From: Nitrospinota bacterium | GTDB taxonomy: Bacteria > UBA8248 | Direction of reading: 5' to 3' | DNA: 64,000 bases | Assembly (NCBI GenBank): GCA_036231405.1 | Contig: JAZAHK010000028.1 | Location: 75,164-139,163 of the forward strand | Part shown: positions 48,875 to 61,894 of the stretch, piece by piece | How positions within the stretch are numbered: the stretch's first letter is position 1 | How the letters are laid out: every line of letters begins with the position of its first letter | Notes under the pieces: generated by a model | The model's database searches: none | Seen by the model: only the letters and a program-made list of their open reading frames with translations | What the model was told of the DNA's origin: nothing | Program-made: the position numbers and the translations under genes

Positions 48875-50128
48875 ATGGAAGTAAGGAAAAGTGTTTTATC
48901 CAATGGTATTCAGGTGGTTACGACCGAAAGGAGCGAATCTGCTGCAGTAGCATTTCATATCTATTTTGGCTGTGGTGGTCGTCATGAAAGAGACGAAGTT
49001 GTTGGTGTTTCACATGCCCTTGAACATATGGTTTTTAAAGGAACACCAACTCGCTCTACTTTAGATATTGCAAGAGAAATGGAAGGTAATGGGGCTTCGA
49101 TTAATGCGAACACTGCTGCAGAACGAACTTGCTATCATTTCACCTCTCCAGTGCAAGTTTTTGAAAAAGTCTTAAATGTTTACGCAGATGCTGTAAATAA
49201 CTGTCTGTTGGATAAGGATGAGTGGAGCCGTGAGAGACATGTTATCTTGGAAGAGTTGAAAATGTATGAAGATATGCCGAGGGTTTGGGTTTCGGATTTG
49301 CTTGAGACTACTATGTTCAATCTTCAAGTAGGCGTTATTGGAAGTAAAGAAACAATAAATAGCATTGAACCTGAGAATATGCGTGAACTAATTGATACTT
49401 GGTACCAGCCTGGAAATACGGTTATCTCGGTAGCAGGTGGGGTTAAACACGAACAAGTTGTTGAACTTTCTGAAAATTTTTTTGGGTCTCGTTTCGGTAG
49501 TTCTGAAAGGCCTCAAAACGTTTCTCTCCCAGAATTGAGTAAGATGTCTTTTGTAGAGCAAGTAAGGCAAACAGATCAGGTTAACTTGTCTATTGGATTT
49601 CGTGGATATGGTCTTAATCACGAGAAACTTCAGTCACTCAGAGTGATGTGTAATATATTAGGTGGCAAAATGAGTAGTCGACTTTTTACAGAGGTGAGAG
49701 AAAAAAGGGGATTGGCTTACAGCGTAGGGGCCAGTGCTAATTGTTTTACAGATGCCGGGTATGTTGAAATGAAAGCAGGTGTCGCTTTAGAAAAGGCAGC
49801 TGAGGCGACTAAAGTGATTTTAGAGGAATCTGCAAAATTCAAGGATGAAGAAGTTTCGGATGAAGAACTGTCAGAAGCGAAAAGTTACATAAGAGGTAAT
49901 CTCCAAATTTACGAAAATTCAAGTTATTTCGCTGGTAGAAATGGTTCAAGTTTAATGTTGCGTAACATTCTTTATCCAATAACACAGGAAATAGAAGATG
50001 TGGAATCAGTTAATAAACAAGATATCGTTAGCGTTGCAAAGGATATCTTTGTGAAGGAAAAAATGACCGTTGCAGTTATTAGTGAAAAGTCTTTACGTGA
50101 GGAAATCAAAGAAAACTCACAGATTTAG
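48875..50128 (+). CDS. M16 family zinc peptidase (pitrilysin-like)
   Basis: HALEHMVFKGT (HxxEH), SSRLFTEVREKRGLAYSV. Confidence 0.93.
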   Translation: MEVRKSVLSNGIQVVTTERSESAAVAFHIYFGCGGRHERDEVVGVSHALEHMVFKGTPTRSTLDIAREMEGNGASINANTAAERTCYHFTSPVQVFEKVLNVYADAVNNCLLDKDEWSRERHVILEELKMYEDMPRVWVSDLLETTMFNLQVGVIGSKETINSIEPENMRELIDTWYQPGNTVISVAGGVKHEQVVELSENFFGSRFGSSERPQNVSLPELSKMSFVEQVRQTDQVNLSIGFRGYGLNHEKLQSLRVMCNILGGKMSSRLFTEVREKRGLAYSVGASANCFTDAGYVEMKAGVALEKAAEATKVILEESAKFKDEEVSDEELSEAKSYIRGNLQIYENSSYFAGRNGSSLMLRNILYPITQEIEDVESVNKQDIVSVAKDIFVKEKMTVAVISEKSLREEIKENSQI

Positions 50129-50989: not shown

Positions 50990-51015
50990 TTTATAGTTAG
51001 GTGGCTAACTATAAA
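50990..51015. promoter_or_regulatory. Candidate MarR operator (perfect 11-bp inverted repeat)
   Basis: TTTATAGTTAG-gtgg-CTAACTATAAA directly upstream of the marR RBS. Confidence 0.7.
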
Positions 51016-51026
51016 TGAGGTTCCAA

Positions 51027-51542
51027 ATGTTTTGTATGAAAGACCTTCCGACTAGAGAGGATTTTGCACCATTGGAAGTTTATGCAAGTTTAGAACCTTC
51101 CTCCATGCTCCTTTTCTATCAATTTTTGAGATCAGGAAGTGATCTTCTTACAATTTTCGATGATTTTCTCATTTCTCATGGGATATCACAGGGAAGATTT
51201 GTTGTCCTTTTAATCCTCAGAAGAAAAGAGGAAGGTTTCGCGCCGTCAGACTTAGCAGAAAGTGCTGGAGTGACTAGAGCGACTATGACTGGTCTTGTGG
51301 ATGGTCTTGAGCGTGATGGATTTGTTAAGAGATATGATTTACACGAAGATAAAAGAAGAACGAATGTAAGAATTACAGAAAAAGGAGAGGAACTTCTGAA
51401 AACTATTTTTCCTGATTATTTTTCTTCAATAGCTGATTTAATGTCAGATATGACAGATGAAGAGAAACGGATTATATCTAAATTTCTGTTAAAATTGGAT
51501 ATAGGAATATCAAATTCGAAGGGAGCCAAAAGTGTTGCATGA
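51027..51542 (+). CDS. MarR family transcriptional regulator
   Basis: ISQGRF.VL, PSDLAE.AGVTRATMTGLVDGLERDG, DKRR..VRITEKG; ATG 51027 after GAGG. Confidence 0.93.
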   Translation: MFCMKDLPTREDFAPLEVYASLEPSSMLLFYQFLRSGSDLLTIFDDFLISHGISQGRFVVLLILRRKEEGFAPSDLAESAGVTRATMTGLVDGLERDGFVKRYDLHEDKRRTNVRITEKGEELLKTIFPDYFSSIADLMSDMTDEEKRIISKFLLKLDIGISNSKGAKSVA

Positions 51543-51584
51543 GATTTTAAATGGGAGTGTTCATTTTTAAATAAGGAGTAAGAA

Positions 51585-52829
51585 ATGGCAAAGCCAAAAG
51601 TGATAGTACAATTATACCCAATGCTTCCAACAAAGGATCGTGCTGAGCGAGAGGAGAAAAGACCACTCGCACGTGACAAAGATCTCTACCATCGTGTTCT
51701 TCATGAATGGTTAGATATAGTCAAGGCGGCAGATGAAATGGGGGTTTGGGGAGTTAGTACGATTGAACATCACTTTCATTCAGAAGGTTATGAAGTTGGC
51801 CCTAATCCTGGCGTTTTAAACGCTTGGTGGGCAAGTTACTTGAAAAATGCTCGTGTTGGAGCATTAGGGTATGTTATGGCTACCCAGGATCCAGTTAGGG
51901 TAGCAGAAGAAACCGCAATTTTAGATCATATTACTAAAGGAAAGATGTTTGTAGGGATGGCACGTGGTTATCAGTCAAGATGGGCTAATGTTTTAGGTCA
52001 ATTTACCGATTCAGTCGCAACAGTTAGTACTGATCTTGGTGGCGACGATGATGTGAAGAATCGAGAGATTTTCGAGGAACGTGCAGAGATGCTTTTGAAA
52101 TTCTGGACTGAAGATTCTACTCAAGTAGATGGAGACTACTATAAAATTCCGTATCCGTACGAGGATGGGATAGAATATCCAGCTTGGAAAAGTGCTCGTG
52201 ATGCAGGAACAGATGGCGAAGTAGGTGAGGACCAAAGGGTACATAAAGTGAGTGTGGTCCCAAAGCCGTATCAGTCACCTCATCCACCAGTTTTTCAGGC
52301 AGTTAGCGCAAGCAATGATTCCATTAAATTTGCGGCTAAGCATGGATTTCGACCTGTATATTTTACTAAGTTAGAGAAGATGGAGGAGATGTCTCATCTT
52401 TATGTAGAAGAGTCACAAAAATATGGGCATAATTTTGCTCATGGGGAAAGACAGTGTGTTTGTAGGTGGATTCACGTAGCAGAAAGTGAAGAGGATTATG
52501 ATCGTAAACTTAAAGAGTACGATCAGGATATTTACGAAAACTTTTATGTTCCTTTTTTTCCACAATTTCCATCTGACACTTCAAATATAGATTGGGTAGA
52601 AAATATGAAAGAAAGTGGTATATTTCTTGGTGGGACGATAGATCAATTGAAAGAACAATTTCTTCATACTTATGAGAAGGTCCCCTCAGAATATATTACT
52701 TTGATTTGGCATTATGCGCAGATTCCTTCAAAAGAAGTGATTTCTGAATTAGATGCTTTTATGACGCATGTTTTGCCGGCACTTGAGGCACCAGAGCCTA
52801 ATGGAGTAACAGTTGGGGGTATTGGATAA
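51585..52829 (+). CDS. LLM class (luciferase-like) flavin-dependent oxidoreductase
   Basis: IEHHFHSEG, DPVRVAEE.AILDH..KG, ARGYQ, PKPYQSPHPP. Confidence 0.9.
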   Translation: MAKPKVIVQLYPMLPTKDRAEREEKRPLARDKDLYHRVLHEWLDIVKAADEMGVWGVSTIEHHFHSEGYEVGPNPGVLNAWWASYLKNARVGALGYVMATQDPVRVAEETAILDHITKGKMFVGMARGYQSRWANVLGQFTDSVATVSTDLGGDDDVKNREIFEERAEMLLKFWTEDSTQVDGDYYKIPYPYEDGIEYPAWKSARDAGTDGEVGEDQRVHKVSVVPKPYQSPHPPVFQAVSASNDSIKFAAKHGFRPVYFTKLEKMEEMSHLYVEESQKYGHNFAHGERQCVCRWIHVAESEEDYDRKLKEYDQDIYENFYVPFFPQFPSDTSNIDWVENMKESGIFLGGTIDQLKEQFLHTYEKVPSEYITLIWHYAQIPSKEVISELDAFMTHVLPALEAPEPNGVTVGGIG

Positions 52830-52874
52830 AATTACTTGTTTGAAAAATAATTGAACTTTTAGGAGGGTCGTTTT

Positions 52875-53588
52875 ATGTATGACATAGTTAATCTTAGTCA
52901 GGATATTTATACGGGTGCTCCGCGTTTCCCTGGCCACCCGCCTACAGAAATTGAATTTGTTGCCACTCATGAGGATGCTAGAAATGCTCCAATTAAGCCT
53001 AAAGATATTACCTACGCTGCTATGATGCTTCATATGTGTGATCACGGTCCCACCCATGTTGATGCAGTAAGTCATATAGACGAAAGGGATACTGCTCCTA
53101 CAATAGATCAGTCTAGTCTTGATACGTTTTTTACCAGAGGTATTGCACTTGATTTTACAGGGAAGGTAGAACCTAAAGAGGAGATCTCTCTAAATCTTTT
53201 GCAGGACGAACTTACTAAAAAAGAGTTAGCTCCTCCTAAGGCAGGGACCTTCCTTTTTACAGGCGGTCATTTTCAACGAACTTATCCTGAAGATCATTAC
53301 AATACAGACTATCCTGGTCTTTCTTACGAGGCGGGTAATTTCCTTTATAGGGAATGTGGGGTTGTAAATATTGGGCAGGATGCTCCAAGCATCGATGCAG
53401 GGATAAATACAGGAGATATGACGTTTCCTTGTCATGTTTTATGTCGGGAATTGCAATGTCATAATACCGAAAATCTTTGTAATATAGAAGAAGTGGCCGG
53501 CAAGGAGTTTCTTTATGTAGGGTTACCACTCAAGATACGTGGCGGTTCAGGTTCTCCAATTCGAGCGGTTGCTGTATTGAATCTTTAA
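52875..53588 (+). CDS. Cyclase family (KynB/isatin hydrolase-like) metal-dependent hydrolase
   Basis: NLSQ, DHGPTHVDA, YPGLS, IGQDAPSID, ENL, PLKIRGGSGSPIRAVA. Confidence 0.9.
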   Translation: MYDIVNLSQDIYTGAPRFPGHPPTEIEFVATHEDARNAPIKPKDITYAAMMLHMCDHGPTHVDAVSHIDERDTAPTIDQSSLDTFFTRGIALDFTGKVEPKEEISLNLLQDELTKKELAPPKAGTFLFTGGHFQRTYPEDHYNTDYPGLSYEAGNFLYRECGVVNIGQDAPSIDAGINTGDMTFPCHVLCRELQCHNTENLCNIEEVAGKEFLYVGLPLKIRGGSGSPIRAVAVLNL

Positions 53589-55036
53589 TTGAAAGTCAAC
53601 TGACTTTCTGTTGGTTCCGCTCAACAAAACCATGATTCTGTTAGTTTTGGTGGTTTGGGAGTTTGTTTTTTGACTGAAAATATAATGTTTTTATCGTTAT
53701 TGATCATTTCTGGGAAGATTGTGAAGAACTCTTTTTTGATGGCAACAAATATTTCCAGAGGGTCAGCGCTTGTTGCCGAGTAATTTCCTGCAATTTTTGA
53801 GACCCTATAGTTTAAAAGTTCCATGTTCGGGTCCGGATGTTTCCAAGTGTGAATAAATTTTTCTGGTTCAAATTTTACAATGTATTTTTTTAAATCATCG
53901 AGTTTCAGTAAATTCGAACCGGGTGGTATGAGCAAGCGAATGGACATTTGTACTGGTTCTATTTCATAAACCAACTGATTTTTCTCGATAAAGTTCAATA
54001 GTTCCATATAATCATAGGGAGTTGTCCATGGCGTAAATGCTATCAATGAAGGACGGATAGAAATATCGGTCTCTCTTGCAATTTTTAATACTTTCAAGAA
54101 ATCTTTTTTTGTGTGTCCTTTGATTAGTTTCTTTAAAATTTCACCGTTCAGTGATTCCAATGCAGTAACGATAAACAAACAGCCTAATTGTTTGAGTTCA
54201 GGAAATATGTCTTTATTTTTAAGAAGATGTTCAACTTTTGCAGTAAAATCGAAAGTCATTTTAGGGAACGATTTGTTCATATTTCTGAGTATCCTAAGAG
54301 AATGTGTAGGTCCGTTTAAAAAGTCGGGATCAGTAAATGTGATATGTCTTGCTCCTTGTCCGTAAAGATTTCTTATGTCAGTTAAAACAATTTTTTCTGG
54401 AATAACAAAAAAACGCCCTTCGTAAATGGGAGTGATTGGGCAATGTAGGCATTGATGCTTGCATCCTCTGCTCGTTTCAACTGCTCCAGTCACAATGTGG
54501 GTACTTCCTTTAATCAATTTGTTGTAATGAGATAGAGAAGGTAAAAAGGATCTATCTGGAGTTTTGAAATCAGGTTTTTTTATAAAAGGACTTTTGTTTT
54601 TATGTCTACTATTAATACCTTTCATTGCACTAGAAGATTGAGAATTTTCGATTGATTTAATTAGTTCGAGCATCGGAATCTGTATTTCCCCACTAATACA
54701 ACTATCTGCAATATTGTCTAGAAGATAGTCGGAGTTCAGATGAGCGTAATCGCCGTAAAAACAAACATGACATTTCTTGTTTATTTCACGAATCATTTTA
54801 GTTGCTTCTACTGCTATACCTAGAGCAGTATGCATAGGAGTACTCATAGCAATGAAATCGTAATTTTCAATTTCTTTGAGATCTATTTTCTGTGTAGATA
54901 AATCTAATACACTTGGCTTGTAGCTAAAGTTCTTTAAAAATGCGTGTAGGCTAGCAGTAGATACAGGTTGATTGCCAAGCTCGTAACAGGAAATTAGAAG
55001 AATGTTTATTTCGGAATTATGGCTATTTTTTTTCAA
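53585..55036 (-). CDS. CUAEP/CCAEP-tail radical SAM selenoprotein (Sec at UGA 53623-53621) with B12-binding-like N-terminal domain
   Basis: SRGCKHQCLHC CxxxCxxC motif; LLISCYELGNQP N-terminus; reading through TGA gives PKLTESWFC-U-AEPTESQLTFN* (TAA 53587-53585). Confidence 0.88.
53591..53608 (-). promoter_or_regulatory. Putative bacterial SECIS hairpin
   Basis: mRNA UGA-GCGGAACCAACA-GAAAGUC-AGUU-GACUUUC: 7-bp stem, loop 19 nt after the UGA, G at loop position 2 followed by U. Confidence 0.7.
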
Positions 55037-55042
55037 GGGAAT

Positions 55043-55834
55043 CTACTTCCACTTTCGCCCAGGTAGATGATTCATGACGGTCTTGCTCAGTCCTCCGTCA
55101 ATTTCTAAAGCTGTAGCAGTAATATAGTCGGCTTCGTCAGAAAATAAGAATAAAATTCCGTTAGCAATATCTATAGGTTGTGCAACCCTCTTGAGTGGAG
55201 TTACTTCACTCCTGCCTTTTTTAATGTCTGGGTCTTTTAGATAAGAAGTTAGAGGTGTTTCAGTATGCCCAGGACAGATAGCATTAACTCTAATCTGGTG
55301 GGCTGCCCATTCTATTCCAAAGTGTTCTGCCAGCATGATTACTGCAGCCTTGACAGTCGAATAGGCACCTGACATGCCGTAGGGTTGTAAACCTCCGATG
55401 GATGACATCGTCACTATAGAACCAGGAGTTTTACTGTCTATCATCCAACGTCCTGCTGCTTGTGTCATAAGAAATGTGCCAGTTAGGCCAATGGTGATCA
55501 TCGTGTTCCAATTCTCCAAGGAAAGATCTTTTAACATTCCTGGTGCCATTTTTACGGCGCTGTTAAGTACACAATGCAATCCGCCAAATTCTTCTATGGT
55601 TTTTTCTACAGCTTTTTGGCAATGGTCAGGATTAGAGACATCTAGGTGAAAATAAATTGCAGTATCTTTATTGTGTTTTTTTATGATTTTGTCTTGCAAC
55701 TTCCGTCCTGTTGTATCATCAACATCCCCGATTAGGACTTTTCCTCCTTGTTCAACAAACATTTCAGCTGTTTGGGCTCCAATACCGCTTGCTCCACCAG
55801 TTATTATGCAAACTTTATTCTTAAAGCGTTTCAT
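55043..55834 (-). CDS. Short-chain dehydrogenase/reductase (SDR)
   Basis: ITGGASGIG, MSSIG, YSTVK (YxxxK), IRVNAICPG. Confidence 0.93.
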   Translation of the reverse strand: MKRFKNKVCIITGGASGIGAQTAEMFVEQGGKVLIGDVDDTTGRKLQDKIIKKHNKDTAIYFHLDVSNPDHCQKAVEKTIEEFGGLHCVLNSAVKMAPGMLKDLSLENWNTMITIGLTGTFLMTQAAGRWMIDSKTPGSIVTMSSIGGLQPYGMSGAYSTVKAAVIMLAEHFGIEWAAHQIRVNAICPGHTETPLTSYLKDPDIKKGRSEVTPLKRVAQPIDIANGILFLFSDEADYITATALEIDGGLSKTVMNHLPGRKWK

Positions 55835-55942: not shown

Positions 55943-56311
55943 TTATGCTGTGAAGGATTTCCCACAGCCACATGTGCCAGTCGCGTTTGGGTTGTTAATT
56001 TTAAAGCCTGAACCTTCTAAACTGTCTAAATAGTCTATCTGGGTTCCAGAAAGTAGCATATCGCTTTGTGGATCTACGAAAATATTAAAACCTTTTGATT
56101 CATAAATTTTATCGTCTGGGTTTGATTTTTCGTCAAAAAAAAGTCCGTAATTGTGTCCTGAACAACCCCCATCCGTAACCGATACTCTAAGCCCATGCCC
56201 TTCTTTGTCTTCTGTTTTTAGAAGTTCAACTACCTTCTTTGAAGCGTTCTCGGTGATGGTAATTCCAATATTGTTAGTAGGAGCCTTTGTTTCATCGAAT
56301 AAAGTTACCAC
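55943..56311 (-). CDS. erpA: A-type Fe-S cluster carrier (IscA/ErpA/HesB family)
   Basis: LRV.V..GGCSG..Y, IDY, NPNA.GTCGCGKSF. Confidence 0.9.
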   Translation of the reverse strand: MVTLFDETKAPTNNIGITITENASKKVVELLKTEDKEGHGLRVSVTDGGCSGHNYGLFFDEKSNPDDKIYESKGFNIFVDPQSDMLLSGTQIDYLDSLEGSGFKINNPNATGTCGCGKSFTA

Positions 56312-56580: not shown

Positions 56581-58503
56581 ATGGGTAAAGTAATTGGTAT
56601 TGATTTAGGTACCACAAATTCTGTTGTTTCCGTTATGGAAGGAGGAGAACCTACAGTCATACCAAATCAGGAAGGTAATCGTACGACACCTAGTATAGTT
56701 GGTTTTACTCCAGAGGGTGAAAAATTAGTAGGAGTTGTAGCTAAAAGGCAAGCAGTAACTAATCCTACTAATACTATTTACTCTGTTAAACGATTTATGG
56801 GTAGACGCCATGAAGAGGTTCCTGAAGAAGTTAAGATGGTACCATATGAAATTATTAAGGCCGAAAATGGTGATGCTAGAGTTAAGATAAATGGTAAGGT
56901 TTATGCCCCACCCGAAATTTCTTCTAGCGTACTCCAAAAATTAAAACAGGCTGCAAGTGATTATCTTGGGGAGGAAGTAACAGACGCTGTTGTGACAGTG
57001 CCTGCATATTTCAATGATAGCCAGCGTCAAGCTACTACTGATGCAGGTAAAATTGCTGGATTAAATGTTCTACGTATAATTAATGAACCTACTGCTGCAG
57101 CGCTAGCATATGGTCTAGATAAAAAACAGGATCAAACCATTGTGGTTTATGATTTTGGTGGTGGTACATTTGATGTCTCTATCCTTGAAGTAGGAGATAA
57201 TGTTGTTGAAGTTAAAGCGACAAATGGAGATACTCATCTTGGTGGCGATAACATAGATCAACAAATAATAGATTGGTTGGTTGATGAATTTAAGAAAGAC
57301 CAAGGAATAGATCTATCTTCTGATCCTATGGCCCTACAGAGGTTGCGTGAAGAATCTGAAAAAGCGAAAATTGAACTTTCTAGTTCAATGGAAACTGATA
57401 TCAATCTGCCATTTATTACAGCTGACTCTTCTGGACCTAAGCACTTAAATATAAAAATTTCTCGTTCTAAATTGGAGCAACTAGCTGGAGATTTAGTTGA
57501 AAGAACGCTTGCTCCTTGTCGTCAATCACTGAACGACGCAAAATTACAACCAGGTGATATAGACGAGGTAGTTTTGGTTGGGGGTTCAACTCGTATGCCC
57601 CTCGTACAGGAGACAGTGAAGAAATTTTTTTCTAAAGATCCTCATAAAGGGGTAAACCCTGATGAGGTAGTAGCAGTTGGTGCAGCAGTGCAGGGTGGTG
57701 TTCTCGCAGGTGATGTTAAAGACGTTTTATTATTAGATGTTACTCCTCTATCTCTTGGAATAGAAACTTTAGGTAATGTTTGTACTAAATTAATTGAACG
57801 TAACACTACAATTCCTGTTAAAAAAAGCGAAACTTTTTCAACCGCGGCTGATAATCAGACTTCAGTTGAGGTTCATGTTTTACAAGGTGAGAGGGAGATG
57901 GCAGTTGATAACCGTAGCCTCGGGAAATTCCACCTTGTTGATATCCCATCTGCTCCACGGGGAGTCCCACAAATTGAAGTTACTTTTGATATTGATGCAA
58001 ATGGAATAGTTAATGTTTCAGCGAAAGACCTAGGTACTGCGAAGGAACAAGCAATTACCATTACAAGCTCAAGTGGTATTTCTGATGATGAAATTAACAA
58101 TATGGTACGTGATGCAGAAGAAAATGCTGGGGAAGATAAAAAACGTCGAGAATTAGTTGAGTCTAGAAATAATGCGGAATCGCTAGCGTATAGCACCGAA
58201 AAAATGTTGAATGAAAATAACGACAAAGTTTCGGAAGAAGATAAAAAAGCTATAGAAGATGCTATTGCAGAAGTTCGTAAGGTTCTTGAAAATCAGGATG
58301 CAAGTATAGAGGAAATTAATTCAGCAAATTCTAATTTAGAGTCTGTATCCCATAAATTATCGCAGGCGATGTATGAAGAAGCTAGCAAACAGGCAAATGC
58401 AAATCCTGAACAATCTAATGATTCACAGAGTGGTGGTAAAACAGGTGAAGACAATGGTGATGTAGTAGATGCGGAATTTGAAGAGGTAGAAAAAGATAAA
58501 TAA
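56581..58503 (+). CDS. dnaK: Molecular chaperone DnaK
   Basis: [37 protein letters not shown]-terminal VVDAEFEEV. Confidence 0.99.
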
Positions 58504-58527
58504 TTTCTTATATTTTAGGAAGTTTGT

Positions 58528-59478
58528 ATGTCAAAACGGGATTATTATGAGGTTTTAGGAGTTAGCAGAGATGTTTCTTCTGATCAATTGAAAAGAGCAT
58601 TTAAAAAACTTGCTAGAAAATTCCATCCTGATGTGAATCCCGGAAACAAATCTGCAGAAGAGCGTTTTAAAGAAATAAGCGAAGCTTATGCTGTTCTTTC
58701 TGATAATGAAAAAAGGCATCAATATGACACCATGGGTCATTCCGCATTTGCTGGAGGGAATCCTTGGGAGAGTGGAGTAAATGTTGATGATATTTTCAAA
58801 GAATTTGGATTCGGAGATATTTTTGGCAGTTTTTTTGGCGGACAACGAGGAAGAACTTCGTATCGCTCGTCAAACCGGGGTGTCCCTATCAATACTAAGG
58901 GAGAAGATGTAAATTATTCGATGGAAATTGGGTTCGATGATGCACTCCGTGGTTTAGAAACTGTTGTAACAGTACCTAAGAACGTTATTAATAATGGTGT
59001 CCTTACAAGAGTTACCGAACGTATTAAAGTGAAAATTCCTGCGGGTGTTTCAAGTGGTTCTCGAGTTCGATTAGCCGGTCAAGGGGAACCTTCTCAATCT
59101 GGAGGAAAGAATGGGGATCTTTATATTTTAACGAAAGTCAGTACTCATCCTTATGTTGAAAGAAAAGGGGCTAATCTATATATTGATCTTCCCTTGACTT
59201 TGGGGGAACTTTCTTTAGGTACTCGTGTGGAACTTGAAACGTTTGAAGGAATAACGAAAGTTACAATTCCTCCAGGGACTCAAAACGGTCAAAGACTAAG
59301 ATTGAACGGAAAGGGTGTTCCGCACATGAAGGGAACAGGAAAAGGAGATTTGTACGTGGTCGTGAACTTAAAACTTCCAAAAAGAATTGATGACAAAAGC
59401 AAGGATCTCATTCGAGAATTTGAAAGATTAAACCCAATTGATCCTAGAGATGGAATGAATATCGCACGTACTTCATAA
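58528..59478 (+). CDS. DnaJ-class B / CbpA-like co-chaperone (no zinc finger)
   Basis: J domain with HPD, G/F region, C-terminal KIPAG...GDL domains, no CxxCxGxG. Confidence 0.9.
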   Translation: MSKRDYYEVLGVSRDVSSDQLKRAFKKLARKFHPDVNPGNKSAEERFKEISEAYAVLSDNEKRHQYDTMGHSAFAGGNPWESGVNVDDIFKEFGFGDIFGSFFGGQRGRTSYRSSNRGVPINTKGEDVNYSMEIGFDDALRGLETVVTVPKNVINNGVLTRVTERIKVKIPAGVSSGSRVRLAGQGEPSQSGGKNGDLYILTKVSTHPYVERKGANLYIDLPLTLGELSLGTRVELETFEGITKVTIPPGTQNGQRLRLNGKGVPHMKGTGKGDLYVVVNLKLPKRIDDKSKDLIREFERLNPIDPRDGMNIARTS

Positions 59479-59488
59479 GGATAAGATT

Positions 59489-59893
59489 TTGGTACGCAGA
59501 AGTAATAAACAAGTAAGATATACAATAAGTACTGTAGCTGAAATGTTTGAGATCCATCCTCAGACTTTAAGAATGTACGAACGAGAAGGTTTGATTGAAC
59601 CTATGCGTAGTGAAGGGAAGACCCGTCTTTATGAAGAGAAAGATTTGGAAAAGTTAGAAATAATTCTAACACTTACTAGAGATATGGGAATTAATTTGGC
59701 TGGTGTTGAGGTAATTATAGAATTACGTCAAAAATTACATTTGGCTATAGAGAGACTTGAACAGATGGAAGAGGTTTTAAGTAGTGATGCGTTTGAGGAA
59801 CTTCGCCAAAAAATTGAAGACGCTACTCCTGACATGAACGCTCTTATTCCTTCGATAGGAGCTAAACTGATGAAACTTAAAAGAGAGAAATGA
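59489..59893 (+). CDS. hspR: MerR-family heat-shock repressor HspR
   Basis: YTISTVAEMFEIHPQTLRMYEREGLI.P.RSEG.TRLY...D, GINLAGV. Confidence 0.9.
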   Translation: MVRRSNKQVRYTISTVAEMFEIHPQTLRMYEREGLIEPMRSEGKTRLYEEKDLEKLEIILTLTRDMGINLAGVEVIIELRQKLHLAIERLEQMEEVLSSDAFEELRQKIEDATPDMNALIPSIGAKLMKLKREK

Positions 59894-59983
59894 TTAAATA
59901 AAAATTTTCTGTCATTCCAAAATTATGTATTCCTATGAAGAATATGTTCAGAATGAAAGATGCTAACACTTGGAGGTTGTTTA

Positions 59984-60718
59984 ATGTTGGAAGAGGAAAT
60001 TGGTTCTATCCATGAAAAAGTGCCACATGTAGACAAGAGCAATCTTTCTTCAGAAGTTGAAGGTGAGCAAAACGTTGAAGAAGATCCAAAAAAAGGAAAA
60101 AAGGCTCGTGTGAATGATCGTAGACGATTTAATTCAAAAGAAAAAGATGATTCCACAGTAGAGGACGACGACACTCCATCTTTAGTGCCGAGTTATGTTG
60201 AACTATTAGAGAAAAAAGTTTCCATTGCTGAAGAAAAACTTCAAGAACACATTGCTAAAGTGAATAAGGAATCAAAGGAATTTAGAACACGTCAGGAAAA
60301 AGATTTTGAACGTAGAATTCAGCAAGTAAGGAAGGAGTTGTTTTCTGGCCTTCTAAGTATTGCAGATGATTTATCTAGGGCGAATAGTGCGGTAAAGGAC
60401 GTCCCTTTGGATGAACTTGATGAAAATATTAAAGGTGTAGATTCCTTGATTCAGGGATTCCAAATGGTTCAGAGTAGATTTTTTCAAGAATTGTCATCCC
60501 AAGGAGTACAACCCATAGAGTCGGTTGGGGAAATTTTTGATCCAGCTAAGCATGAGGCAATACGTTCTGATGAAGTTACAGACAAAGAATTAGATGGGAA
60601 AATTTTAGAAGAACTTTCAGTGGGATATCTTTTGAACGATGAGATTCTTCGTCCAAGCCGTGTCGCTGTTGGAAAATACACTCAGGATAAAAAAAATGAC
60701 CAATCTACTGAAGAATAA
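59984..60718 (+). CDS. grpE: Nucleotide exchange factor GrpE
   Basis: Coiled coil, LLSIADDLSRA, FDPAKHEA, GY.LND.ILRPSRV.V; ATG after GGAGG. Confidence 0.92.
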   Translation: MLEEEIGSIHEKVPHVDKSNLSSEVEGEQNVEEDPKKGKKARVNDRRRFNSKEKDDSTVEDDDTPSLVPSYVELLEKKVSIAEEKLQEHIAKVNKESKEFRTRQEKDFERRIQQVRKELFSGLLSIADDLSRANSAVKDVPLDELDENIKGVDSLIQGFQMVQSRFFQELSSQGVQPIESVGEIFDPAKHEAIRSDEVTDKELDGKILEELSVGYLLNDEILRPSRVAVGKYTQDKKNDQSTEE

Positions 60719-60742
60719 GATTGATTTAGGAGAAAAATAAAG

Positions 60743-61894
60743 GTGGCGAAAAGGGACTATTATGAAGTTTTAAATATAGGTAGAAACGCGACTGAGTCAG
60801 AAATAAAAAAAGCTTATCGCACAACGGCAATGCAATATCATCCAGATAGAAATCCGGGTGATACAAAAGCTGAAGAGCTTTTCAAGGAAGCTTCGGAAGC
60901 TTATCAAGTACTTAGTGATCCCCAGAAGAGAGGAGTTTATGATCAATATGGACATGAGGGGTTTTCTGGTGGATTTTCATCTGGGTTCTCTAATGTAGAA
61001 GATATTTTTTCATCTTTTGGTGACGTTTTCTCTGATATTTTTGGCGGTGGATTTGGGAGACGATCTCGAAGGGATAGTAGTTCGAAGGGAAGAGATCTTG
61101 CATATCAATTAGATCTAACATTTGAGGAATCAGCCCTAGGTTCAGAACATGATATTGAGTTTGAACGTGAAATAGAGTGTGCATATTGTGGAGGTACAGG
61201 TGCAAAAAGCTCAGATTCGATTATAAACTGTGGAGAGTGTAATGGCAGTGGGCAAGTTGCATATAGACAGGGTTTTGTAACTTTTAGTTCTCAATGTACA
61301 GACTGTGGTGGTTCAGGGAAGAGAATTTCAGAACACTGTAATGAATGTACAGGTTCTGGAAAACGTTCTGAAAAATGTGCTGTAAAAGTGAAAATTCCTG
61401 GCGGTGCAGATCATGAATCACGTTTAAGATTACGAGAAAAAGGAGAAGGAGGAACTAACGGAGGACCCTCTGGTGATTTGCATGTAATAGTGAACCTCTT
61501 AAGTCATGAGAGATTTGAGAGAGAGGGAAATAATATTTTCAGTAGAGAAGACGTTACATTTTCTCAAGCTGCACTTGGCGGAAAGATTTTTGTGCAAACT
61601 TTATATGGAGAAAGTGAGGTTGTTGTGCCACAAGGAGTACAGTCTGGTGAAAGTACTATAATTAAAAAACAGGGGTTCCCATTTTTGGGACAGAACTCAA
61701 AGGGCGATCATATTGTGGTTTTCTCTGTACTTACACCAAAAGAATTAAGTTCGAAAGAGAAGAAATTATTCCGAGAACTAGCTAAATTTGAAGAACAGAG
61801 AACCTCTACTGTTAAATCCTTTATGAATTATTTTTCAAAATTTGATAGGATAAAGAAGTTTTTTTGGTTTGATAGGTTGCCTTTCTATAGATAA
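60743..61894 (+). CDS. dnaJ: Molecular chaperone DnaJ
   Basis: HPD J domain, G/F region, four CxxCxGxG motifs. Confidence 0.96.
   Translation: MAKRDYYEVLNIGRNATESEIKKAYRTTAMQYHPDRNPGDTKAEELFKEASEAYQVLSDPQKRGVYDQYGHEGFSGGFSSGFSNVEDIFSSFGDVFSDIFGGGFGRRSRRDSSSKGRDLAYQLDLTFEESALGSEHDIEFEREIECAYCGGTGAKSSDSIINCGECNGSGQVAYRQGFVTFSSQCTDCGGSGKRISEHCNECTGSGKRSEKCAVKVKIPGGADHESRLRLREKGEGGTNGGPSGDLHVIVNLLSHERFEREGNNIFSREDVTFSQAALGGKIFVQTLYGESEVVVPQGVQSGESTIIKKQGFPFLGQNSKGDHIVVFSVLTPKELSSKEKKLFRELAKFEEQRTSTVKSFMNYFSKFDRIKKFFWFDRLPFYR

Follow-up and report, generated by a model that had tools for sequence, protein, structure and literature searches.

The 64,000-nucleotide window analysed here (contig JAZAHK010000028.1 of a Nitrospinota bacterium, positions 75,164 to 139,163) belongs to a marine Nitrospinaceae-like metagenome-assembled genome that is 92% complete. 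On its minus strand, a gene coding for a radical SAM enzyme is preceded by a gene for an SDR-family oxidoreductase and, further upstream, by a gene for an A-type iron-sulfur carrier. The features of the locus are the following:

55943..56311, minus strand: ErpA/IscA A-type iron-sulfur carrier, upstream (TIGR00049, 127.4 bits; ErpA model NF010147, 118 bits for a cut-off of 117)
55043..55834, minus strand: SDR-family oxidoreductase, with its end 6 nt before the start of the radical SAM gene
53585..55036, minus strand: full gene of the predicted CUAEP-tail radical SAM selenoprotein (483 residues, TTG start, UGA as U472, TAA stop; NF040546, 593.8 bits)
54440..54463, minus strand: CX3CX2C motif (C192, C196, C199), ligands of the radical SAM [4Fe-4S] cluster, invariant in the alignments
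53621..53623, minus strand: in-frame UGA, predicted to be read as U472, directly after Cys471 and aligned with a Cys of the CCAEP homologues
53588..53620, minus strand: eleven post-UGA codons, AEPTESQLTFN, of which AEP-T-x-x-Q-(L/F/V) is kept in the Sec and Cys forms
53591..53608, minus strand: putative SECIS hairpin within the codons of the tail (stem of 7 bp, AGUU loop), present in the TGA loci and absent from the Cys loci

The minus-strand ORF at 53621..55036 has a TTG start and codes for 471 amino acids, ending in ...TESWFC followed by TGA. The codons past this TGA are GCG GAA CCA ACA GAA AGT CAG TTG ACT TTC AAT TAA, with the TAA stop at 53585-53587, and the read-through product is a protein of 483 residues with a C-U-AEPTESQLTFN end. 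The sequence is thus exactly the WFC-U-AEPTESQLTFN read-through proposed in a preliminary description of this DNA, with the TGA at 53621-53623 and the TAA behind it. The AEPTESQLTFN codons are overlooked by ordinary ORF calling.

The conservation of this tail was followed in related genomes and in metagenomes. A six-frame search of the host genome with NF040546 gave a match of 587.2 bits with one TGA inside. Exactly one TGA was found at the tail position in 30 of the 31 related genomes carrying the family above cut-off, and a TGA occupied the same position in 16/16 cases of a second phylum sample (88 genomes). In the host and related genomes, C-TGA-(A/T)EP is in frame in 21/21 loci, and the 80 metagenome loci comprise 62 with TGA, 13 with TGY and 5 that end before the tail. 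The AEP-T-x-x-Q peptide and the frame after the TGA are kept in all 62 metagenome TGA loci and in all 21 genome loci. CCAEP is carried by 45 of the best 150 of 8165 representatives. A further 37 stop precisely at W[F/Y]C, as public gene calls truncate many family members at the UGA. In the alignment of the C-termini, the UGA faces the Cys of the CCAEP homologues and AEP is conserved behind it, in agreement with the recoding first proposed. The host genome also harbors the whole Sec machinery, which the preliminary description had left to be looked for: selA (568.6 bits), selB (391.8 bits) and selD (334.7 bits) are all above cut-off, the last one being of the Sec type with its own in-frame TGA, and a tRNA-SeC(tca) was detected by ARAGORN.

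The hairpin GAAAGUC-AGUU-GACUUUC described earlier is present in all its parts: GAAAGUC at 53602-53608, AGUU at 53598-53601 and GACUUUC at 53591-53597. The loop begins 19 nt past the UGA and its positions 2 and 3 are G and U. This arrangement is compatible, as had been claimed, with the bacterial SECIS model as generally described, in which a stem-loop follows the UGA at a short distance and carries a G early in its apical loop. The folding energy of the hairpin is -12.9 kcal/mol (z = -1.97; 7/200 shuffles as stable), and the fold of the single sequence is only modestly better than chance. Because folding energy alone is too weak to carry the argument, the contrast with the Cys loci was used instead. 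Of 100 TGA-type loci, 87 have 6 or more uninterrupted base pairs in the stem and 78 of the 100 have a loop that begins 19 nt past the UGA, whereas in the Cys-type (TGY) loci (n = 13), which encode the same peptide, the median stem is 4 bp and its position is variable. The covariation score of the 100-sequence alignment is 0.297 versus 0.206 +/- 0.012 for shuffles, a value reached by 0/500 shuffles. Three stem pairs are changed on both sides relative to high-GC relatives, and the compensatory substitutions change the encoded residues while the distance from the UGA stays. The comparison across loci shows that the predicted hairpin is above chance. A single fixed helix register was considered and rejected, since 72.4% of the cells of the SECIS alignment pair in one register and 74.6% when the register is slid by +1. 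As loops of 4 nt and loops of 5 nt both occur, per-sequence stem counts are a better measure than one register. An Rfam scan of 53400-53800 (E up to 10) returned chance matches to unrelated families, none above the gathering score.

If the TGA were a real stop, the protein would end in ...WFC and the codons and hairpin behind it would be a 3' UTR or a terminator serving the convergent gene as well; this is in line with the end given by ordinary ORF calling, with the z value of the hairpin taken alone and with its position at the junction of two convergent genes, but it is hardly credible in view of the frame and peptide conserved in the 21 genome and 62 metagenome TGA loci, the Cys-type homologues that read on through the same peptide, the constant distance between UGA and hairpin despite substitutions that alter residues, and the complete Sec machinery of the genome. 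The predicted recoding of UGA 53621-53623 to selenocysteine is directly supported by these comparisons. SelB and tRNA-Sec would be guided by the hairpin within the last 11 codons, and the gene very probably codes for a genuine selenoprotein that belongs to NF040546, the curated family of CUAEP/CCAEP-tail radical SAM proteins. In the annotation, the gene is due 12 extra codons and a selenoprotein label.

The read-through protein exceeds the NF040546 cut-off of 500 bits (E = 2.2e-178), with residues 12-480 matching profile positions 1-466 of 468. As the match reaches position 466, the tail is included, and the CUAEP/CCAEP family invoked in the preliminary description does exist as a curated model. 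This family is already known: besides being curated, it is mentioned in print, the consulted part of Haft's 2022 preprint (10.1101/2022.07.06.499078) calling it uncharacterised. In the main texts of the literature on the CUAEP/CCAEP-tail family, no function is described. The protein has the same CX3CX2C motif and W(F/Y)C-(U/C)-AEP tail as the rest of the family, with UGA where others have Cys. Nothing sets it apart from the other members; its genus has an SDR gene between the ErpA and enzyme genes. Pfam Radical_SAM is matched with 47.5 bits, and C192, C196 and C199 are invariant in alignments of 31 and 26 sequences. The only invariant cysteines are those of CX3CX2C and C471, without a conserved second set for an auxiliary cluster, and the sole invariant cysteine outside the motif, in the tail, adjoins the selenocysteine.

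The AlphaFold2 model of the protein has a pLDDT of 91. Its nearest solved folds are OxsB, AprD4, TsrM, MgmA and MiaB, and RimO, CysS and TokK are also among the neighbours. A Rossmann-like domain followed by a radical SAM barrel is shared with the class B enzymes and the B12-free AprD4 (PDB 5ul3 OxsB, 6fd2 AprD4, 6wte TsrM, 9ccb MgmA), with query-length TM-scores of 0.54-0.69 and E-values of 4.6e-16 to 4.3e-13 at a sequence identity of merely 12-16%. A class-B-like layout is directly supported: the Rossmann-like domain is N-terminal, the radical SAM barrel has a single [4Fe-4S] site with the CX3CX2C motif, and a further domain forms the C-terminus. The Pfam B12-binding domain was not detected in the CUAEP-tail protein, and the orthologue in locus L051 scores 31.5 bits against it for a cut-off of 32.1. 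A sequence search of solved structures gave no close relative, the best match being MgmA (9ccb, 47.5 bits), and ArsL has no entry there. Vicinal C-U is shared with other Cys-Sec selenoproteins (SAO-locus proteins, HgcA forms, some MerT forms and KCU-star), whose folds are unrelated. In the part of the Haft preprint consulted (10.1101/2022.07.06.499078), vicinal C-U is read as suggesting that a heavy-metal atom is contacted; around the CUAEP-tail family, the loci examined showed no mercury or organometal genes.

The gene neighbourhood was compared across the same loci. The SDR gene of the window is probably co-transcribed with the radical SAM gene. Apart from the window, only loci L033-L035 have it next to the enzyme, and this pairing is specific to the genus of the host. 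ErpA is the conserved partner throughout the Nitrospinaceae loci: it adjoins the enzyme in 17/17 family-level loci, and it is also present in L033-L035, where the SDR gene intervenes. More widely, 56 of 83 evaluable loci have a gene for an iron or Fe-S carrier on the strand of the enzyme and no more than 500 nt away from it (23/39 when clustered at 70% identity; rough expectation from the host genome, 0.8%), a count drawn from related genomes and not from independent samples. No carrier lies within 500 nt in 27 of the 83, and the ErpA gene of the host window, 923 nt from the enzyme with the SDR gene between, is not counted in the 56. The carrier is ErpA in the Nitrospinaceae loci and NifU/Nfu, YggX or Mrp elsewhere, these families being non-homologous. 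A co-transcribed ErpA would keep an oxygen-sensitive cluster loaded in the aerobic host, and the NifU/Nfu, YggX or Mrp-type carriers may serve the same role in other lineages.

A second partner is an L-amino-acid-ligase-type ATP-grasp gene, adjacent to the enzyme in several lineages. In one phylum sample it is present in 19/19 genomes with the enzyme versus 13/69 without it, a co-occurrence which again concerns related genomes and not independent samples; the homologue of the host genome is on another contig. The database clusters of this partner are titled only 'ATP-grasp domain-containing protein'. The ATP-grasp gene also has an SDR neighbour, and a specific pairing with the SDR beside the enzyme was considered, but at only 29% identity the two show a generic SDR likeness. 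The carrier-gene and ATP-grasp associations are new leads, and the ATP-grasp enzyme may act on the product of the radical SAM enzyme.

The CUAEP family is the closest relative of ArsL. The protein scores 320 bits with the ArsL model NF040542 over residues 12-408; as the cut-off of 450 is not reached, it is an ArsL paralogue and not ArsL itself. The likeness to ArsL pointed out earlier is therefore real, but paralogous, and in a quick tree the ArsL-type rows stand on a separate branch with a support of 100. The whole core is homologous, with the same domain order and one radical SAM cluster, and the vicinal Cys-Cys of ArsL's RCCLKC tail aligns with C-(C/U). The CUAEP tail differs in being C-U-AEP and not R-CC-LK-C, with 2 soft ligands instead of 3, and the linker from core to tail is about 60 residues longer. 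The C-terminal RCCLKC (CCXXC) arsenite-binding motif is not in the CUAEP protein, where only the CC/CU dipeptide aligns. Moreover, PMHT (67-70), H198, H245 and H308 are invariant in the CUAEP family and absent from the ArsL-type rows, so that the active site may differ. From the consulted parts of two preprints (10.1101/2024.02.01.577332; 10.64898/2026.04.29.721666), the ArsL tail binds arsenite and holds no auxiliary cluster, and ArsL makes an ACP radical, no other canonical radical SAM enzyme being known to generate an aminocarboxypropyl radical from SAM. The second of these sources, in the part seen, has arsenite bound through three cysteines (10.64898/2026.04.29.721666).

By analogy with this paralogue, we tentatively propose, at chances well short of even, that the enzyme works like ArsL and that its Cys-Sec dyad holds a non-arsenic soft atom or substrate. 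The reduced cluster would cleave SAM, and the C-terminal Cys-Sec dyad, aligned with the Cys-Cys of the arsenite-binding tail, would hold the soft atom or substrate which receives the radical and which should not be arsenic.

The dyad could instead be a mobile redox arm, cycling between selenolthiol and selenenylsulfide, which brings reducing equivalents to the active site and is re-reduced by a thiol system; the preliminary description had also allowed for a redox arm, beside a metalloid-binding tail. Comparable arms would be the GCUG tail of mammalian thioredoxin reductase and, in class I ribonucleotide reductase, the cysteine pair at the C-terminus. Sec and Cys have been exchanged at the tail site at least twice in the quick tree, and such exchange is typical of redox-active sites. 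Several neighbours point in the same direction: a glutathione-disulfide reductase gene lies directly upstream of the enzyme gene and overlaps it in L060 and L061 (556 and 584 bits; cut-off 480), thioredoxin and rhodanese genes are upstream in L069, a redoxin gene is near the enzyme in L056, a bacilliredoxin-like gene is downstream in L133, and YggX ('oxidative damage protection protein') is a frequent neighbour. These redox neighbours are, however, lineage-specific and found in few of 113 loci, and in the parts of the ArsL sources consulted, the aligned Cys-Cys of ArsL serves to bind the substrate, with no description of it as a redox pair. A redox arm is possible, though rather unlikely.

Less probable still is an enzyme handling sulfur or Fe-S fragments, whose tail carries sulfane sulfur or contacts a cluster consumed in the reaction. 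Consumption of the cluster would explain why a cluster-rebuilding carrier is encoded alongside, in the way that NfuA rebuilds the lipoyl synthase cluster. The Fe-S carrier genes from several families found beside the enzyme in 56 of the 83 evaluable loci, the NfuA-like neighbour of L057 and L059 with its fused rhodanese domains, the rhodanese gene upstream in L069, and MiaB and RimO among the fold neighbours are compatible with such chemistry. On the other hand, carrier genes near a cluster enzyme can simply serve its maturation, and the invariant cysteines, limited to CX3CX2C and C471, leave none for an auxiliary cluster. In ArsL, according to the part of the source consulted, the iron and sulfur content is unchanged when the tail is removed (10.1101/2024.02.01.577332).

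A true ArsL orthologue, forming a carbon-arsenic bond with Sec in place of one arsenite ligand, would account for ArsL being the closest characterised family and for the alignment of its Cys-Cys with C-U; we consider it very improbable, given the score below 450, the AEP in place of LKC, the separate branch of the ArsL-type rows and the genomic context. In the host genome, the best match to model NF008823, which we take to be arsM, is 151.6 bits for a cut-off of 263 and lies on another contig, and acr3 gave no match in this 92% complete genome. No ars-type Pfam domain was found in 339 neighbouring proteins scanned. The absence of arsM and other ars genes around the enzyme, as given in the preliminary description, is thus upheld. 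Furthermore, the gene is present in 24/24 Nitrospinaceae-family relatives searched (some copies only cut-off or split), suggesting a housekeeping role.

The family is widespread: its metagenome matches number in the hundreds, record titles place it in Nitrospinaceae and SAR324, and the rest of its range is drawn from further genomes and metagenome contigs. The enzyme, its Fe-S or iron carrier and the ATP-grasp ligase might together form a widespread, undescribed housekeeping pathway, in which an ArsL-like radical transfer would place the aminocarboxypropyl group from SAM on a chalcogen, or on another soft atom, held by the Cys-Sec arm, giving a non-proteinogenic amino acid which the ligase would couple to a partner. 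This extension of the ArsL-like reading is put forward as a doubtful one. The organisms which it covers are aerobic bacteria: Nitrospinota, SAR324 and many soil lineages. The partner genes offer handles for expression and assay, with a Fe-S carrier adjacent in two thirds of the evaluable loci and the ATP-grasp ligase co-occurring. The reaction of the CUAEP family would tell whether ArsL-type chemistry is common; if the housekeeping pathway is real, this non-canonical radical SAM chemistry would be common and untied from arsenic.

The radical SAM gene on the minus strand of the window, its tail and the hairpin lying within it are arranged as follows.

55036 (TTG) to 53621-53623 (TGA), minus strand: radical SAM ORF of 471 aa, with the C-terminus ...PKLTESWFC.
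After the TGA, minus strand: eleven codons in frame (AEPTESQLTFN), then TAA at 53585-53587.
53602-53608 (GAAAGUC), 53598-53601 (AGUU loop) and 53591-53597 (GACUUUC), minus strand: SECIS hairpin, a perfect 7-bp stem inside the tail codons.

ORF, tail codons and hairpin are exactly those of the preliminary description, and decoding of the TGA as selenocysteine (U) gives a protein of 483 residues ending in WFC-U-AEPTESQLTFN. A CUAEP/CCAEP-tail family had been invoked for it. This family exists as NCBIfam NF040546, "CUAEP/CCAEP-tail radical SAM (seleno)protein", against which the read-through protein scored 593.8 bits (cut-off 500), the match reaching profile position 466 of 468. The second-best model was that of ArsL, the radical SAM enzyme of arsinothricin biosynthesis (NF040542), with 320 bits for a cut-off of 450 and over residues 12-408 only. 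The gene is therefore a member of the curated NF040546 family and a paralogue of ArsL; the proposed resemblance to ArsL holds as homology, not as identity. With Pfam, the Radical_SAM domain alone was detected. In the available text of a 2022 preprint by Haft (10.1101/2022.07.06.499078), the family is listed as uncharacterised and as one of a small number of selenoproteins that contain a C-U dipeptide. The finding is ordinary in kind, a Sec-containing member of an already catalogued selenoprotein family, and the preliminary description was right in both observation and interpretation.

The in-frame TGA is widely conserved. A match above the family cut-off was obtained in 31 of 41 related genomes, 30 of them with exactly one internal TGA, the sole exception being cut by a contig end ahead of the tail. 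Of 88 genomes from the phylum to which the SAR324 record belongs, 16 matched above the cut-off and all 16 had one TGA. The pattern C-TGA-(A/T)EP-(T/L)-x-x-Q was found in frame in all 21 loci from the window's own genome and related genomes. Among 80 metagenome loci, the codon at the UGA site is TGA in 62 and TGC or TGT in 13, and the contig ends ahead of the tail in 5. When 1.84 billion representative proteins were searched, 8165 relatives were returned (E up to 0.001). Tails were classed in the best 150: 45 carry CCAEP, 37 end exactly at W[F/Y]C and are truncated Sec forms, 6 fit an RCCxK pattern (mostly RCCLKC or RCCIKC ends), 11 show a different CC tail, and the remaining 51 comprise fragments and other sequences. 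The UGA consequently aligns with Cys in homologues, in the CCAEP proteins and the TGC/TGT metagenome loci, and AEP is conserved past it in genome loci, metagenome loci and CCAEP proteins alike. Among named relatives, uncultured Nitrospinaceae MAGs are the closest (69-72% identity in this enzyme, full synteny), and a SAR324 MAG homologue shares 40% identity.

The own genome (2.09 Mb, 48 contigs, 91.9% complete) encodes all the Sec machinery looked for: selA (568.6 bits) and selB (391.8 bits), adjacent on one contig, selD (334.7 bits; contig C3, 154791-155753) and a tRNA-SeC with anticodon tca. Since selD has one in-frame TGA, it is probably a selenoprotein gene too. None of the three findings that the preliminary description had set against the Sec reading (Sec machinery absent, AEP not conserved, homologues ending at WFC) refutes it.

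In the window, the hairpin loop begins 19 nt past the UGA. Taken alone, this hairpin is only modestly more stable than shuffled sequence (-12.9 kcal/mol, z = -1.97, 7 of 200 shuffles equally good). High-GC relatives have GAGGGCC-AGUU-GGCCCUC in its place, that is, three stem pairs changed on both sides around an unchanged loop, with the residues altered S/G, T/A and F/L. Among 100 TGA loci, 87 form a stem of 6 or more consecutive base pairs, and the loop starts 19 nt past the UGA in 78 and 20 nt past it in 8. The mean folding energy of these loci is -14.9 kcal/mol versus -9.3 kcal/mol for 13 Cys-type loci, which code for the same AEPTxxQ peptide but show a median stem of 4 bp and no common position or loop. 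The covariation score of the 100-sequence alignment (0.297) exceeds that of shuffles (0.206 +/- 0.012) and was reached by 0 of 500. In the same alignment, a register slid by one column pairs equally well (74.6% versus 72.4%) because part of the family (L067, L068, L071, L073, L079, L083 and other rows of the SECIS-region alignment) uses a 5-nt loop, AGUUU or AGUUC, with the 3' arm displaced by one base. These hairpins accompany a Q-F-G-P tail, Q-L-A-L being found otherwise. No Rfam family matched the hairpin. The hairpin is a SECIS element and not a by-product of the peptide, and the Cys-type loci introduced here serve as its natural control.

Alignments of 26 family members, and of these with 5 ArsL-type sequences, contain as invariant cysteines only C192, C196 and C199 of the radical SAM cluster and C471, and no auxiliary-cluster cysteine set. 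A confident AlphaFold2 model built from the 26-sequence alignment (pLDDT 91.0, pTM 0.91) gives residues 461-470, just ahead of the C471-U472 dyad, a mean pLDDT of 90, the final residues being flexible. A sequence search of solved structures yielded no close relative; the closest folds by Foldseek were the class-B-type OxsB, TsrM, MgmA, CysS and TokK, the B12-free AprD4, and MiaB/RimO, at TM-scores of 0.52-0.69 (query-length normalised) and 12-17% identity. The enzyme has one radical SAM cluster and a conserved Cys-Sec tail, which is probably mobile. In a MAFFT alignment, the CC of the ArsL-type R-CC-(L/I)-K-C tail falls on the C-(C/U) of the CUAEP family, whose linker ahead of the tail is about 60 residues longer. 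The PMHT motif (67-70) and H198, H245 and H308 are invariant within the family whereas they are replaced in ArsL-type sequences, and could make up a site for a metal or substrate that is specific to the family. A quick maximum-likelihood tree separates the branch of the five ArsL-type rows (SH-aLRT 100) from that of 25 of the 26 CUAEP/CCAEP rows (SH-aLRT 99); a Cys form on a long branch is placed closer to ArsL. Two or more changes are needed on this tree to account for the Sec forms.

The surroundings of the gene in the window are the following.

51015-53588, plus strand: run of a MarR regulator, a luciferase-like (LLM) oxidoreductase and a cyclase/arylformamidase-like gene.
52875-53588, plus strand: the cyclase/arylformamidase-like gene, converging on the enzyme tail with a 3' overlap of 4 nt (53585-53588).
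55043-55834, minus strand: SDR oxidoreductase, the radical SAM start lying 6 nt past its stop.
55943-56311, minus strand: ErpA/IscA-type carrier, upstream of the SDR gene.
56581-61894, divergent from the ErpA gene: heat-shock cluster of dnaK, a DnaJ/CbpA-like gene, hspR, grpE and a second full-length dnaJ.

Placed 3 nt past the stop codon of the cyclase-like gene, the SECIS hairpin might double as a terminator for both convergent genes. Many Nitrospinaceae loci keep the MarR/LLM/cyclase run on the downstream side of the radical SAM gene (70-94% protein identity). An M16-peptidase-like gene at 48875-50128 has sub-threshold matches to YfmF (116 bits, cut-off 285) and YfmH (94 bits, cut-off 250), families associated with 5-aminopentanol modification of EF-P. 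Metagenome loci L079 and L083 likewise have a DnaJ gene in the vicinity of the enzyme gene.

Neighbours were scanned in 11 long genome loci (115 proteins) and in metagenome loci (114 upstream and 110 downstream proteins). The adjoining gene is repeatedly an iron or Fe-S carrier, from different, non-homologous families.

Nitrospinaceae and L065-L067: A-type ErpA/IscA.
SAR324-type loci (upstream) and many soil loci (downstream): NifU/Nfu.
L057-L059: NfuA-like, with a fused rhodanese domain in two of three.
More than 12 loci: YggX, "oxidative damage protection protein" (142.6 bits, cut-off 74).
L105: Mrp/ApbC-type carrier with a DUF971 domain.

In the Cys-type loci L075 (1192-1893) and L087 (924-1535), the upstream YggX gene is a tandem fusion with two YggX domains (two Pfam stretches). 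All 17 family-level Nitrospinaceae loci have ErpA directly upstream of the enzyme gene; only in the window's genus does an SDR gene intervene. In a uniform tblastn census, the tail was located in 113 of 118 non-redundant loci, and 83 with at least 600 nt on either side were evaluable. A same-strand carrier gene lies within 500 nt of the enzyme in 56 of these 83, which come partly from related genomes and are non-independent samples (NifU 28, A-type 15, YggX 14, Mrp 1, DUF971 1, some loci having two). The window is outside the 56 because its SDR gene pushes ErpA to 923 nt. After single-linkage grouping of the enzymes, carriers accompany 23 of the 39 evaluable groups formed at 70% identity and 10 of the 18 formed at 60%. 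By a rough count, fewer than 1% of genes should have such a neighbour by chance, the same queries giving 8 matches, one overlapping another, in the whole own genome. Five unrelated carrier families, placed upstream or downstream, imply that the adjacency arose in several separate events. Most simply, the carriers would supply or repair the oxygen-sensitive cluster of the enzyme in these aerobes.

A second partner is the gene of an ATP-grasp ligase, with the L-amino-acid-ligase domain order ATPgrasp_N, ATP-grasp_4, LAL_C2. In class-level Nitrospinota relatives, in SAR324-type genomes and in many soil loci, it adjoins the enzyme gene or is no more than about 4 kb away. Its best named matches, BacD and DdaF, are far under cut-off, and no Atlas cluster for it bears a functional name. 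It occurs in 19 of 19 genomes with the enzyme versus 13 of 69 without in the 88-genome sample, and in 30 of 33 relatives that carry the enzyme, whole or in part, versus 0 of 8 without, a split that largely follows taxonomy. A single homologue (43% identity) is encoded in the own genome, on a contig other than the enzyme's, about 20 kb from selA and selB.

Contig C6, L146, 5494-8109: an SDR gene preceding and overlapping the ATP-grasp start, the ATP-grasp gene and a converging Nfu-type gene.

The two SDR proteins, beside the enzyme and beside the ATP-grasp, were considered as a close pair and rejected (29% identity only). Further neighbours are restricted to particular lineages: a glutathione reductase gene immediately precedes that of the enzyme in two loci, enoyl-CoA hydratase occurs with AtuA in six, DUF169 and Rrf2 in a few and a methyltransferase in one.

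ArsL is the best-studied relative. In the available text of two preprints (10.1101/2024.02.01.577332; 10.64898/2026.04.29.721666), it splits SAM into MTA and an aminocarboxypropyl radical, its C-terminal cysteines hold arsenite, and removal of the tail leaves SAM cleavage and iron-sulfur content unchanged. Because the CC of the ArsL tail aligns with the C-U of the enzyme, we tentatively prefer, while regarding it as more doubtful than probable, that the dyad would offer a soft atom or a substrate to the SAM-derived radical. A role of the dyad as a redox arm, in agreement with a few thiol-redox neighbour genes, is about equally likely. A role in handling sulfur or in consuming a cluster is less likely since a second cysteine set is absent. 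Arsenic as the substrate is very unlikely: the score is under the ArsL cut-off and the ArsL tail motif is lacking, the own genome gave no match for acr3 and none above cut-off for NF008823 (which we take to be the arsM model), and nearly all members of a family of marine nitrite oxidisers with small genomes carry the enzyme gene. The two conserved partner genes added here, the carrier and the ATP-grasp ligase, make the chemistry of the enzyme easier to attack.
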